Assembly (NCBI GenBank): GCA_964016885.1
Contig: OZ024742.1
Location: forward strand, 307,768,001 to 307,832,000
Origin: Eledone cirrhosa
Taxonomy: Eukaryota
Reading direction: 5' to 3'
Length of the DNA: 64,000 bases
The notes under the pieces are model-generated. The model made no database searches, was not told the origin of the DNA, and saw only the letters and a program-made list of their open reading frames with translations. Numbering within the stretch: position 1 is the stretch's first letter; each line of letters begins with the position of its first letter. The position numbers and the translations under genes were made by a program. Below are positions 2,170 to 61,085 of this stretch, one piece after another.

Positions 2170-2885
2170 AGAGAATTAGTATATTTACCAACATATGCGT
2201 ACAGATGTACACTAATGCTAGCAAATACATAAGTTATGTCATAGTACCTAGGTGGTTCTATGCAGGGGGATGCAGAACAATTATATGAAAGACGTAAAAT
2301 AAGAAAATTTTAAAAATTAAAAATTAACTTACTAAAATTTTCACTCCAACTAATTAGTTTCTGTAATGGGATAAAGATAGTTACGCAATGTAACTATCGA
2401 GAATTCATTACGTCATCAGGGAGTCTATTCTCAGCTAAGTCCCCAGGCAATGCGCGGACACTAGGGACTCATATAAAAATAATAATTCGGTGGATGGAAC
2501 AGCTAGCGGGGACTGAATTCCATAGCACTGAAAAAGTTCACTGCCTCTGGTCAAGTGGCAGATTCTAAAGAATCAATCACGTGACACTGAGGTTAGTCAG
2601 TAGGAGTGGGGTGGTATTATGACAAGAGCCTACTACCACTACTATGAATTAGCAGTGGATTTGGCAAGTTTGCTCAACAAATAAATAATTTGGAGATAAA
2701 TATAGAGAATGAGTATATTCACCAACATATGCGTACAGATGTACACTTTTGCTAGCAAATACATAAGTTATGTCATAGTACCTAGGTGGTTCTATGCAGG
2801 GGGATGCAGAACAATTATATGAAAGACGTAAAATAAGAAAATTTAAAAAATTAAAAATTAACTTACTAAAATTTTCACTCCAACT
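2170..2885 (-). mobile_element. ORF-less hammerhead element with 182-bp terminal direct repeat (unit 534 bp), PLE-derived or retrozyme-like
   Basis: 2170-2351 repeated at 2704-2885; hammerhead at 2343-2424; flanked by (GA)n and (TA)n. Confidence 0.7.
2343..2424 (-). ncRNA. Type I hammerhead ribozyme motif with extended stem II
   Basis: ACTCC CTGATGA C-GTAATG..GATAGTTAC-ATTGC-GTAACTATC..CATTAC-A GAAA CTAATTAG TT GGAGT. Confidence 0.8.
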
Positions 2886-3126
2886 TATATATATATATAT
2901 ATATATATATATATATATATATATATATATATATATATTTATATATATATGTGTGTGTGTGTGTGTGTGTGTGTGTGTGTGTGTGTGTGTGTGTGTGTGT
3001 GTGTGTGTGTGTGTGTGTGTGTGTGTTTATGTGTGTGTGTGTGTATGTGTGAGCATGTGTGTATGTATATATATATATATATATATATATATATACATAT
3101 ATATATATATATATATATATATATAT
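2886..3126. repeat. (TA)n/(TG)n compound microsatellite
   Basis: Direct reading. Confidence 0.95.
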
Positions 3127-3586
3127 AAGTTGCACAAAAGAGAATTACTGAACCATGTATCAATTCAATATATATATATATCACTTTGGCTTCAACATAT
3201 ACTCTATTAATAAGCAATGGTATGACGGTGTGTGACATAGGGAGGAAGCAAATTCCATACAATCCAAAATCACTATACAGTCTTCTTTTCATATGAAGCC
3301 ATCTTCACTCCAGGTATGTTACTAATACATTTTGGAAAGTAAATATCAAGAGTAAGGTTTTGTATTTAATATTCAACAAAAGTCTATTGTCCCTCTATAA
3401 GAAATCAATATGACTGTTGTGAGCACTAGCTGAATAAATATTTTATAATCTCTATATTAGCAGTAATATGTAGTTAGTAATCGCCTATATTCTTCCTTTC
3501 AGTGAAACTGTGAAATAACCACCGCTAACCATAGTTCTAGTGATAACAATGATGACGTCGGTTGTAGCAACAAGAAATACAAACAC

Positions 3587-4236
3587 TGTAGTAGTAGTAG
3601 TAGTAGTAGTGGTGGTGGTGGTAGTAGTAGTGGTGGTGGTGGTGGTGGTGATAGTGGTGTTGTTGATGGTGCTGGTTGCGTTGGTGGTGGTGGTGGCGGT
3701 GGTAGTAGTAGTAGTAGTAGTAGTAGTAGTAGTAGTAGTAGTAGTAGTAGTAGTAGTGGTAGTAGTGGTAGTAGTAGTAGTGGTGGTGGTGGTCGTGGTG
3801 GTGGTCGTGGTTGTGGTGGTGATAGTGGTGTTGTTGATGGTGCTGGTTGCGTTGGTGGTGGTGGTGGTGGTAGTAGTAGTAGTAGTAGTAGTAGTAGTAG
3901 TAGTAGTAGTAGTAGTAGTAGTAGTAGTAGTAGTAGTAGTGGTAGTAGTAGTAGTGGTAGTGGTGGTGGTGGTCGTGGTAGTCGTGGTTGTGGTGGTGAT
4001 AGTGGTGTTGTTGATGGTGCTGGTTGCGTTGGTGGTGGTAGTAGTAGTAGTAGTAGTAGTAGTAGTAGTAGTAGTAGTAGTAGAAGTAGTTGTGGTGGTG
4101 GTGGTCTTGGTGGTGGTAGTGGTGCTGTTGATGGTGCCGGTTGCGTTGGTGGTGGTGATGGTGGTGGTGGTAGTAGTAGTAGTAGTAGTAGTAGTAGTAG
4201 TAGTAGTAGTAGTAGTAGTAGTAGTAGTAGTAGTAG
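3587..4236. repeat. (TAG/TGG)n trinucleotide array with four higher-order units
   Basis: Cassette gtggtgttgttgatggtgctggttgcgttgg recurs near 3653, 3824, 4002 and 4119. Confidence 0.9.
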
Positions 4237-4699
4237 ATACTATTTAAATGAAACATTGAATATTTGAACATTCACTTAGTTGTAACTGTCGCCGTGCATT
4301 TTAAATTGGTTTTATGGTGTATTGTTGGAATCCTGATTCTGCAAGACACTATTTCTTCCCGTCAGTTAATTGACACATCACTTCCAAACTTTGACAGGTC
4401 TATTTAATTATAGTCAAAAAAGAAATACTTAGACAGTCAAGAGTAAATATAATTAAATTGTTTATTGGAAAAGAAAAAAATAGGAAAATCAAGTTGGTTC
4501 GATACACGTCTCTAATTACGATACGCGATATTGCAACAATTATAAATTAATTTATTAATAGCAGTAGCATCTAACAAAACAAACTAAAAAGTATCAGAGT
4601 AGAAATTAAATTTATTTAACCCTATGAAAGCTGAAGTAAATTATTTATCAATGCTTACTGTTTAATCACATCTTTTAATGATTTAGCAAAGAAGACATA

Positions 4700-58328: not shown

Positions 58329-59603
58329 CAGGTGTTGGACAAAATAATGGAAACACCTTAACATTTCAAACAAATCTATTCTAATATGGGGTCGGACCGC
58401 CTTTGGCAGTAATTACAGCTTGAATTCTACGAGGTATGGACTCGTACAAAGTTTGAATTGTTTCCAAAAGAATGTTTGTCCATTATTCAGCTAAAACAGT
58501 CTCCCGTTCTTGTAGTGATGGTGGAGGATATCGACTCCTTACTTGTTTTTCTAAAAACCACCATAAATGTTCAATAATATTGAGATCTGGGGACTGTGGT
58601 GGCCAGATAAGATGTTCAACTTCACTAGAATGTTGCTCGTGCCATTCAGTAACAACTTTAGTTGTGTGAATTGGTGCATTATCACCCTGAAAGATTGCGT
58701 TTCCCTCCGGAAACAGTTCCGCAACCATAGTATGAATTTGATCCGATAAAATGCTTAAATAGTCTTGAATATTAATTCTGCCATGAAGGGAAACAATTGG
58801 GCCGGCGGATATGCAAGATATAGCCCCCCCCCCCCAGATCATCACAGATCCTCCTCCATGTTTAACAGTTGGAAGAAGGCAGTCTGTGTCAAAAGCTTCT
58901 TTTGGCTGTCCCCACACGTATACTCGGCCTGTGGTCGGAAATAAGGTAAAGGATGACTCGTCCGAGAAAATAACATTCTTCCACTGCTCTTGGGACCAAT
59001 TCTGTAGGTTTTTACTCCACTCTAAACGCTTTGCAACGTTTGTTCTTGAAAGTAGTGGTTTTCTGATTGCAGCCCTCCCGTGAAATTCAGCTTTGTGCAG
59101 CTCCCGGCGAACAGTTTTTGTGGAAACTGGTTTCTCGAGGTGGTCATTAAGCTCTGTAGTAATTTTGGGAACTGTACTTTTGTGATCCTTTCTAACAATT
59201 CGTGTAACAGTCCGACGGTCCCTATCTGAAAGTTTTGGTTTTCTTCTGGAGTTTTCTTTCGACGACGAGATGTTTCCCTCTTTTTCAAAGGTTGTTATTA
59301 CTTTCGAGACAGTACTTCTTGATACACCAAACATTTCGGCTGTTTTTGTTGCGCTAGCGCCTGCCATACGAGCACCAACAATTTGTCCTCTTTGAAAGTC
59401 CGATAGATCTGTCATTTTAATACATTTTAATTACCTTTTTCTGATGATATCTGAAAAGAAACAGCAATTTTAACAAAACATATTAAGCAACACTAATAAT
59501 AAATAAAAAACATAAAAATAAACAAGCTTTTGACGGTTTTATAGATATTTCAAAATGATGATGCTATGATGCTAGGTGTTTCCATTACTTTGTCCAACCC
59601 CTG
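58329..59603 (-). mobile_element. Tc1-like DNA transposon, DD36E (Incomer-type), full length 1275 bp
   Basis: 30-bp TIRs CAGG(T/G)GTTGGACAAA(A/G)TAATGGAAACACCT (28/30 match), TA flanks, transposase inside. Confidence 0.95.
58381..59415 (-). pseudogene. Tc1-like transposase, 344 codons with one internal stop at 58483-58485
   Basis: HTH N-terminus, FSDES, QGDNAPIH, SPDLNIIE; the frame continues to KGGPTPY*. Confidence 0.92.
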
Positions 59604-59619
59604 TATATATATATATATA

Positions 59620-60142
59620 ATAAATCATGTCTTTAGAATCATCAGATGAAATATATACTATTTCTTCTTCTAATTAGCATAATTAACAATCAGACATCTA
59701 GTTTTTCAATCCGATCCCGCCAAAAATAGATTCAAAAATGGCTAAGAATCGCTATGTGGCTGTGGTCAAGCCAGAAAGAATGTGATTGGTTGCTTACGGC
59801 GGGTAGGCTTGCTGCTAGAAAGCGCAGCCAAATATCGCCAAATTGAATCTCAGCCTATCGGGAGATTATTAAATATAAAGGTTAACATATACATAAAGTT
59901 ATAGATATATATATGTTGCAACTGGTCACTTTTAAGCTCTATGAAGAATTAATAAATTAAAAAATCAGAGCAATATATCATAAATCATGTCTTTAGAATC
60001 ATCAGATAAAATATATACTATTTCTTCTTATTTCTGATTTATGATATATTGCTCTGATTTTTTAATTTATTAATTCTTCATAGAGCTTAAAAGTGACCAG
60101 TTGCAACATATATATATCTATAACTTTATGTTAACCTTTATA
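59620..60142. mobile_element. Composite direct + inverted repeat of a PLE-like terminus
   Basis: 59621-59669 repeated at 59981-60029; about 59874-59987 inverted at 60036-60142; CTGATGA on the minus strand. Confidence 0.6.
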
Positions 60143-60223
60143 TATATATATATATATATATATATATATATATATATATATATATATATATATATATATA
60201 TATATATATATATATATATATAT

Positions 60224-61085
60224 ATAATAAGGGTTGACGGACCCAGCATATTTATCAATGCCAATACCGGTTGTATCTCAGCGCACTCAATGGGCAATGT
60301 AAGATACATTACCAGAGTATACACAGAGTTATTTGCCTCAACACACGTAAAACGGGTGCCTATAAAGTTCCCGGACTCGAGTTTCTGCCGCACTAATGCA
60401 GCAGTAAGGTGCATTGCACCATCTGTCTGCATATATTATGCAACAATGCACAATCGGCTTATGCGGCTTCATCAGCGGGTATCGCCTAATCAATAACCAA
60501 TCGATCAACAGATTCCAAACACCATCCCATGCCGGTCATGACTGTTTGTGACAACCAACACGGTAAAGCGATTAGCAACTGGCAACTGATAGGACTATCT
60601 CTTAACTAGCCACTGATTTACAAATTTTACGTGGGGATGGGAAGCTAAAAAGAACCAATCTTTTAGTTCCTGTCAGAAGCTCTCAACCAACGTGTCTGAC
60701 ACACAAATTATCAAGGGGTGAAAAGATGGCTATTAGAAATAGCAGTTCACATTGATATAAAATAGAATGGAAGCATTCGGTTCATGTCTCCAAGCCCCAT
60801 GGCTAGAGGAAAGCGATGGTAACAATGGTAGTGCCAAGAACCTTTATCGGACTTTAAATGCGATCATCCATTATATAGCAATATAGTAGCGAGCTGAAAT
60901 GTGTCAGCCACGTGTGTAGATAACCAGTCTAATTCACAACTTAAAAGAGTGAGCGACAAAATTAGTAGCAGGAAAAAGAGTGCATATCAAAACAAAAACA
61001 CAATAAAAAGTGAAAAATTGTTTAACTTACTCTCAATATTCCGCTAGTTGGGAGATAATAATAATAAGGGTTGACGGACCCAGTA
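60224..61085 (-). mobile_element. ORF-less hammerhead element with about 23-bp terminal redundancy (unit 837 bp)
   Basis: ataataagggttgacggacccag at both ends; (TA)n on both flanks; hammerhead at 60370-60479. Confidence 0.65.
60370..60479 (-). ncRNA. Type I hammerhead motif with 83-nt structured stem II
   Basis: CCCG CTGATGA A-GCCGCA..GTGCATTG..CAATGCAC..TGCGGC-A GAAA CTCGAG TC CGGG. Confidence 0.85.

Follow-up and report, generated by a model that had tools for sequence, protein, structure and literature searches.

Hammerhead ribozyme motifs with long stem II arms in a Hydra-clade Penelope-like element and two non-coding elements of Eledone cirrhosa

Three complete type I hammerhead ribozyme motifs (HH1, HH2 and HH3) were found in a 64-kb stretch of Eledone cirrhosa DNA (contig OZ024742.1; the whole stretch is called the window below), each in a different element: E2, a Penelope-like element (PLE) judged by its protein remnant, and the non-coding units E1 and E3. 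Hammerhead residues are given in the usual numbering, in which, for example, the canonical first pair of stem II is G10.1-C11.1. The closest described motifs are the hammerheads of Hydra-clade PLEs (Craig et al. 2021, PMC8557442, File S2). Like those of the window, they are sense type I motifs near the 3' end of elements with a (TA)n target, have a near-palindromic stem III of 8-10 nt and frequently show a mismatched first stem II pair. They differ in the length of stem II, which spans 12-26 nt in the 25 published families (our count from File S2, PMC8557442; first pair U.U in 14) against 51, 83 and 106 nt here. In metazoan PLEs, the minimal hammerheads described by Cervera and De la Pena (2014, PMC4209133) share with ours the terminal location, a palindromic stem III region, a proposed dimeric cleavage and an extra base after A9. 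They differ in that stem III is slight or absent, loop II is short and a conserved G10.1-C11.1 pair stands immediately ahead of GAAA. None of HH1-HH3 has this minimal form (a stem III insert of none or 2 nt, a short loop II and G10.1-C11.1 before GAAA): an A intervenes before GAAA, and stem III of the monomer has 2-3 bp.

Single features of the window motifs are found elsewhere. In PLE-X1_cBra from Chara the junction ahead of GAAA is C.A followed by G-C, as in HH1, with a short loop, and in PLE-X1_sMoe and PLE-X1_sTam from spike mosses about 54 and 48 nt separate the core halves, which were flagged as deviant from the canonical structure (PMC8557442). PLE-X elements belong to another clade (endonuclease-lacking, Chlamys-related), and none of those tabulated joins both traits or reaches 83-106 nt (PMC8557442). 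Animal retrozymes without long terminal repeats (non-LTR retrozymes) (Cervera and De la Pena 2020, PMC7229834; Li et al. 2026, 10.64898/2026.07.22.740005) resemble E1 and E3, which likewise lack coding capacity, form structured units partly in tandem and bear a type I hammerhead. E1 and E3 differ in forming partial tandems only, with one long-armed hammerhead each. Their window copies lack the run of two units or more in succession, with complete hammerheads, by which Li et al. (10.64898/2026.07.22.740005) recognise an active retrozyme. E1 and E3 are probably PLE-derived. In the discontinuous Clec2 hammerhead of mammals, an insertion sits in stem I of a type III fold. That hammerhead is likewise a natural one interrupted by a long insertion, but it is a host mRNA motif with several hundred inserted nt and not part of a retroelement (PMC6765202). 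Our literature search, which left Lunse et al. 2017 and Arkhipova et al. 2017 outside its range, found no account of hammerheads with a long stem II in animal PLEs, whether of the Hydra clade or not.

The motifs were read directly from the sequence, and they lie where a preliminary description of the window had placed them, with the type I topology it gave (Table 1). All three have CUGANGA and GAAA, the A15.1-U16.1 pair and a NUH triplet, and the helix order is that of type I throughout. Stem III amounts to 2-3 bp in a monomer and to 8-10 bp in a dimer. The stem II regions measured 51, 106 and 83 nt in HH1, HH2 and HH3, and their first pairs were C.A, U-A and A.A, both as described before, so that the canonical G10.1-C11.1 is absent. 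The second stem II pair is G-C and an A precedes GAAA in 3/3, which gives a common junction, CUGANGA-N-G...C-A-GAAA. Every helix differs among the three motifs, yet all pair.

Table 1. Positions of the hammerhead motifs and of the elements that carry them (window coordinates)
Feature	Position	Strand	Description
HH1	2343..2424	-	type I hammerhead motif; predicted cut 2348/2347; stem I 2424-2420/2347-2343 (5 bp); CUGAUGA 2419-2413; stem II region 2412-2362 (51 nt); GAAA 2361-2358; stem III 2358-2349 (perfect 10-nt palindrome); triplet GUU
HH2	50092..50234	+	type I hammerhead motif; predicted cut 50225/50226; stem I 50092-50100/50226-50234 (9 bp); CUGAAGA 50101-50107; stem II region 50108-50213 (106 nt); stem III 50217-50224 (8-nt palindrome with G.U); triplet GUA
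HH3	60370..60479	-	type I hammerhead motif; predicted cut 60374/60373; stem I 60479-60476/60373-60370 (4 bp); CUGAUGA 60475-60469; stem II region 60468-60386 (83 nt); stem III 60382-60375 (perfect 8-nt palindrome); triplet GUC
E1	2170..2885	-	non-coding; partial tandem of a 534-nt unit; (TA)n tract on either side
E1 upstream repeat (pseudo-LTR)	2704..2885	-	96.8% identical over 185 nt to 2170-2354
E2	47764..50279	+	5'-truncated Hydra-clade PLE (by protein motifs), (TA)n tract on either side
E2 open reading frame remnant	47880..49325	+	three frames, two frameshifts
E3	60227..61091	-	non-coding element, 837-nt unit, between (TA)n tracts, multi-copy family

Folding was used to look inside the stem II regions (all energies in this work are nearest-neighbour estimates). 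That of HH1 is predicted to form the C.A mismatch, a 6-bp helix, a 7x7 internal loop and a 9-bp hairpin, that of HH2 a single long irregular rod, and that of HH3 the A.A mismatch, a 7-bp helix and a three-way junction with two hairpins; the basal stem II helices have 6, 3 and 7 bp, respectively. Each region folded better than 200/200 of its own shuffles (z -7.1, -3.5 and -4.7 for HH1, HH2 and HH3; the HH2 stretch in this test was shifted by one base), in agreement with the internal helices noted earlier.

We next asked how often such motifs arise by chance. A descriptor allowing a stem II of up to 200 nt, written after the motifs had been seen, recovered exactly HH1, HH2 and HH3 in the window. 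In 300 dinucleotide shuffles (1-kb blocks) the mean was 0.08 matches; three matches were reached in 0/300, and a match bearing a perfect palindrome of at least 8 nt also in 0/300. When one core mismatch was permitted, the sole extra match was a short-stem II motif at 381. A further site at 23095 (+), with the core words and a hairpin, was rejected as it failed the full descriptor. Three pattern scans of viral contigs (1, 5 and 7 of 64 parts) gave 362 matches, of which five passed a minimal filter; all five had 2-bp basal stems and none was convincing.

HH2 lies 776 nt past the stop codon of E2 and 54 nt ahead of its 3' (TA)n tract. The reading frame remnant holds, in translation, reverse transcriptase (RT) motif 7, the thumb, two low-complexity inserts, a CxCx5C linker and then a C-terminal GIY-YIG-type endonuclease with CxxC and CxH and without CCHH. 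The copy starts 5'-truncated ahead of RT motif 7, so the RWK and DKT region is missing from it. CxCx5C, CxxC and CxH are the endonuclease motifs that define the Hydra clade (Craig et al. 2021, PMC8557442, section 11, Fig. S7 text). A Pfam search of the E2 reading frame gave no match. HMMER with the E2 protein found 3593 relatives at E <=0.001, and both pieces of the frame aligned to a profile of 9 relatives (probability 97.9 for one, 99.95 with E 2e-38 for the other). By its protein motifs and this profile alignment E2 is classed as a Hydra-clade PLE, and it has the (TA)n insertion and the 3' sense hammerhead of that clade. It is no Naiad, a group with an N-terminal endonuclease and no canonical hammerhead, as its endonuclease is C-terminal. 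The link to PLEs drawn in the preliminary description is borne out by HH2, which stands beside a Hydra-type protein, but the minimal PLE hammerhead was the wrong comparison; the Hydra clade, with its 8-10 nt stem III, fits.

The 3' untranslated region (UTR) of E2 measures 776 nt against 44-524 in relatives, which together with the protein inserts fits a general expansion of E2. No short hammerhead alternative was detected in this UTR by the descriptor, the one-mismatch descriptor or a covariance model of short relatives (see below). In a quick tree without outgroup, the E2 protein shared a long branch with P0001 and stood clear of every metagenome locus. A word-indexed search of longer proteins gave no match, and neither scans of viral contigs for the endonuclease nor two alignments confirmed a relative. 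A separate TA-flanked element 250 nt from HH2 carries a short-stem II hammerhead on the opposite strand (50477-50531 (-)), which scored 22.5 bits with Rfam Hammerhead_1 (below gathering) and 27.1 bits with model R1.

For comparison, a metagenome scan (alignment A3) confirmed 300 relatives, and 79 loci were kept as the best 80 of 300 by likeness to P0148. The descriptor used on them allowed a stem II of up to 260 nt and required a near-palindromic stem III of at least 6 nt. It found hammerheads in 60/79 loci, 50 of them distinct, with stem II regions of 10-30 nt (median 16) and a stem III of 8-10 nt in 50/50, the latter in part owing to the filter. The first stem II pair was U.U in 30, G-C in 11, A-U in 5, G.U in 2, A.A in 1 and C.A in 1; the second was U-A in 42, C-G in 8 and G-C in 0, and differs in this from the G-C of HH1-HH3. 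Thirteen of the 19 loci without a descriptor match were searched with a covariance model trained on 34 of the short Hydra-type hammerheads, which found a short hammerhead in 10 and none in 3; the other 6, with short or no tails, lay outside this search. Altogether 70/79 loci have a hammerhead, none with a stem II region above 30 nt. Two long candidates, in L180 (64 nt) and L190 (99 nt), were rejected as chance matches (stem III 4-6 nt, stem II 2-3 bp), and each locus holds a better short hammerhead.

Within the 34 short relatives the three-helix structure covaries, with 86% of cells paired, a value reached in 0/500 shuffles and compared with 34-45% in slid controls. Stem III of HH1 is letter-identical to that of L176/L177, and stem III of HH3 to that of L135/L157. 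Where it is visible, a (TA)n tract follows the cut of the relatives by 32-113 nt. A mismatched first pair and a palindromic stem III are the norm of the clade; what is unusual in the window is the length together with the shared N-G...C-A-GAAA junction. The first pair other than G-C, which had been presented as peculiar, is therefore no such thing, G-C being present in just 11/50 relatives and U.U prevailing in these and in the published Hydra families alike. In two of the metagenome loci (L153:1759-1813 and L184:2390-2440) the Hydra-type hammerheads show a U3-A8 core covariation known from Schistosoma PLEs.

E1 and E3 are each a non-coding unit with a type I hammerhead and a head-to-tail repeat in the form of partial tandems. 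Their longest stop-free frames have 84 and 91 codons, respectively. At the 3' end of E1 a (TC)n tract intervenes before (TA)n, and E3 has a terminal direct repeat of 26 nt (61086-61061 and 60249-60224). As circles, the E1 unit is predicted to fold strongly (z -7.7, 40 shuffles) and that of E3 with z -4.7 (15 shuffles). BLAST among E1, E2 and E3 revealed no similarity beyond chance. The view of three unrelated elements is upheld to this extent, but they have the junction signature and the (TA)n target in common, and on these grounds HH1-HH3 likely form one sub-lineage. E1 and E3 are likely non-autonomous relatives of E2. The 5' end of E1 (2881-2885, -) lies inside the stem III palindrome, 4 nt ahead of the equivalent of the predicted cut, and may mark a stop of reverse transcription on a ligated or uncut template. 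A 5' end close to the predicted cut is seen in one of the three window elements and is merely a hint; in the metagenome loci most repeats begin at contig ends, so 5' ends there are uninformative about the cut.

Sequencing runs were then compared with E3. In run X1 (organism A) 2324 contigs match it, and summed depth was 23,650-69,723 over HH3 against 1,261-10,751 in full bins upstream of 60590; this depth is no copy number and is taken only to mean many copies with the 3' part over-represented. Among the listed X1 contigs two cover the entire HH3, with 19-26 substitutions and 1-2 gaps, and a contig of organism B covers all of it with 3 substitutions and 0 gaps. A contig of organism C matches the 5' half of HH3 (60426-60506) with 3 differences and has unlike sequence upstream. 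None of the three listed joints skips the HH3 insert (0/3), and the sole near-fixed difference inside HH3 among the rows shown is a hairpin-loop position, 60414. A variant present in 25 contigs has a wobble-compatible change in the basal helix, a C before GAAA and the triplet GUU, and keeps stem III and stem I; its 3'-side changes are all wobble-compatible or at tolerated positions. In one organism B contig the differing 3' strand could form 9 bp with the 5' strand of the window, with which, rather than with the contig's own, it was compared. The X1 contig joining 61069 to 60233 may be the window locus itself and was excluded as proof of a tandem array. The long arm of HH3 thus persists in many copies, and also in sequence labelled as a second organism. 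X1 depth drops about tenfold just upstream of HH3 (60500-60590), and the junction to (TA)n falls at 60521 in one contig of organism B; this may reflect truncation of most E3 copies immediately 5' of the hammerhead, or their membership in a diverged subfamily.

The preliminary description had also proposed that the motifs form an expanded-stem II class that short-loop searches would miss. Rfam gave no hammerhead match at the HH1, HH2 and HH3 sites up to E 5, and no family accounted for the stem II inserts. The model from short relatives scored 15.9 bits on HH1 (E 0.097, beneath AT-rich noise matches), matched half of HH2 (E 4.4) and did not list HH3. The core search of Craig et al. used a spacer of 7-17 nt (PMC8557442). 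Both kinds of search fail, as foreseen; however, Rfam 15 also had 0 matches in eight short Hydra-type loci (L124, L129, L131, L140, L149, L157, L165, L176), so its failure on HH1-HH3 does not come from length alone, and an Rfam family model for Hydra-type hammerheads seems to be missing. The class itself stands insofar as the arms are far longer than those of the 70 related loci, and is qualified by the roughly 48-54 nt tabulated for the two spike-moss elements.

HH1-HH3 are best read, with a probability of roughly 0.62, as 3'-terminal Hydra-style hammerheads whose loop II has given way to a domain of hairpins, predicted to fold on its own and probably tolerated without being needed, and which would cut as dimers. 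The insert would fold on itself and keep the two core halves together over the G-C pair one step beyond the core; since the basal helix has 6-7 bp in HH1 and HH3, it would correspond to hairpins nested in loop II. Tandem transcripts would be cleaved by double hammerheads whose partners pair via the palindromic stem III, releasing unit-length RNA that might circularise. A Hydra-type RT-endonuclease would mobilise E1 and E3, unit RNA being copied into (TA)n beginning 54-178 nt downstream of the cut, and the three long arms would go back to common descent within one divergent sub-lineage. In folding, the double hammerhead joined via stem III came out at -48.8, -69.4 and -93.5 kcal/mol (HH1, HH2 and HH3) against -41.8, -66.0 and -81.4 kcal/mol for two free monomers, and within 0-2.6 kcal/mol of the unconstrained co-fold. 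Dimers are predicted to be favoured and monomers disfavoured, as the preliminary description had supposed for palindromic stem III, and this matches the dimeric cleavage published for metazoan PLE hammerheads (PMC4209133).

A number of points speak against this reading. The active monomer is predicted to lie 2.2-8.3 kcal/mol above the minimum, with an ensemble share of 1e-2 to 3e-7, and published PLE hammerheads cut weakly in vitro (PMC4209133). The hammerhead of an anole PLE requires protein and is dispensable for insertion in vitro (PMC11167929), a result that keeps in play both a functional role of the arm and a dead core. Each window copy has one hammerhead, with no second in tandem in E1, E2 or E3. 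As E1 and E3 encode no protein, their clade is inferred only, and (TA)n targeting is also a Naiad trait (PMC8557442). E2 was placed by a quick tree with long branches; since the comparison loci were picked by likeness to P0148 and E2 stands apart with P0001, its own sub-lineage is unsampled. E3 was the one element compared with sequencing runs, E1 and E2 resting on one copy each. No compensatory change inside the insert was found among 40 of the 170 variant rows, which are unlinked. Read clusters of run X9 include one minus an A of GAAA and one with a broken basal pair, which are decayed copies, and X1 may contain the source of the window.

The long arm might instead be a selected functional module: at 6-7 bp from the core, its internal loop or junction would dock onto stem I or attach to the RT-endonuclease of the element and in this way control cleavage, making a natural allosteric hammerhead. 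HH1 and HH3 do have an internal loop or junction at that distance, the usual site of loop II, and with 25-nt flanks stem I of HH1 is predicted to extend through an internal loop; this extension vanishes with longer flanks. The 5' half of HH3 preserved in organism C beside unlike sequence would also suit a module, as would the protein-dependent hammerhead of the anole PLE, where reverse transcription begins in a stem-loop (PMC11167929). However, the three inserts have no common sequence or topology (rod, rod, three-way junction), 70 related loci cope with 30 nt or less, and by eye no complementary loop contact is common to HH1-HH3, and we consider a selected module unlikely. It is similarly doubtful that a Hydra-clade sub-lineage and its non-autonomous partners evolved modular hammerheads in which a 50-110 nt domain gates dimeric self-cleavage, for example by binding their own RT-endonuclease. 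A dead or nearly dead motif, a remnant or protein-binding fold whose core is silenced by the absent G10.1-C11.1 and the insert and which spreads without cleavage, would fit the low predicted occupancy of the active monomer. The anole PLE inserts in vitro without hammerhead cleavage and no reads end at its cut site (PMC11167929), and Naiads proliferate without canonical hammerheads (PMC8557442). Yet all core bases are intact in 3/3 sequence-unrelated elements, the E3 variant subfamily retains the core, stem III, stem I and a permitted triplet, a mismatched first pair is normal for the clade, and a natural U.U first pair was reported to be compatible with activity (PMC3088659). With the E1 5' end 4 nt from the predicted cut, in one case, these observations make a dead core improbable.

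Accidental placement of the short core words at hairpins, in DNA rich in AT and in repeats, deserves mention because AT-rich stretches yield noise matches with the short model and the window holds many perfect hairpins. It is largely refuted by the shuffles and by position, HH2 occupying exactly the Hydra hammerhead site in a 3' UTR with no short alternative; together with the lack of a convincing full motif among the 362 phage pattern matches, this leaves it a very small likelihood. Tolerance of the arm appears likelier than selected gating or a dead core, given inserts of unlike sequence and shape, relatives that have none and expansion elsewhere in E2.

Both the ribozyme and the retroelement clade are known, and what we describe is a structural variant that is real and occurs repeatedly. 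Hammerheads in animal genomes have been counted with descriptors whose loop II is short; given a multi-copy family whose arms have 50-106 nt, such counts overlook whole families, and the N-G...C-A-GAAA junction plus palindrome offers a simple signature for finding long-arm hammerheads. Three natural, sequence-unrelated inserts on one core also provide a test of cutting in vivo, of the need for protein or dimers and of the tolerance of stem II. Should the insert be neutral, the gain would be a helpful correction to annotation rather than new biology. If gating were true, such ribozymes would be present in great number in some invertebrate genomes, where present descriptors fail to see them, and might account for some of the PLE families said to have no hammerhead.

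Naiad 'half cores' were considered as long-arm type I hammerheads and rejected, with no support by eye in the 3' ends examined (PMC8557442 File S5): the core halves are reversed in two octopus Naiads, and the record before Naiad_Adux has no stem I. By eye, GAAAC stands ahead of CUGAUGA among GC-rich stems in the records that precede Naiad_Ovul and Naiad_Omin (PMC8557442 File S5). These octopus Naiad consensus ends may represent a permuted fold resembling a hammerhead, in a clade from which hammerheads are said to be absent.

The window as a whole is microsatellite-rich eukaryotic DNA crowded with retroelement fragments. A fourth hammerhead-like family, with an 18-nt stem II region, occurs in another dispersed repeat at 61, 381 and 27946 (-) and, degenerate, near 46885 (+); given the short-stem II copies at 61, 381 and 27946, long arms are not general to the hammerheads of this genome. 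A second PLE endonuclease remnant at 53019-53670 (-) (Pfam GIY-YIG, E 5e-7) has a CX4CxxC linker and for this reason appears Neptune- or Naiad-like rather than Hydra. Three decayed long interspersed nuclear element (LINE) copies in tandem orientation, which we take to be L1/Tx1-like, span 9300-23500 (+), with a best RVT_1 E of 1e-22. An open Tc1/mariner-type transposase frame of 315 codons lies at 58483-59430 (-). Near-perfect hairpins of 75-110 nt were seen at 24744-24856, 33904-34006, 46770-46870, 47275-47350 and 61416-61499, some of them between (TA)n tracts, and those at 24744 and 47275 look related.

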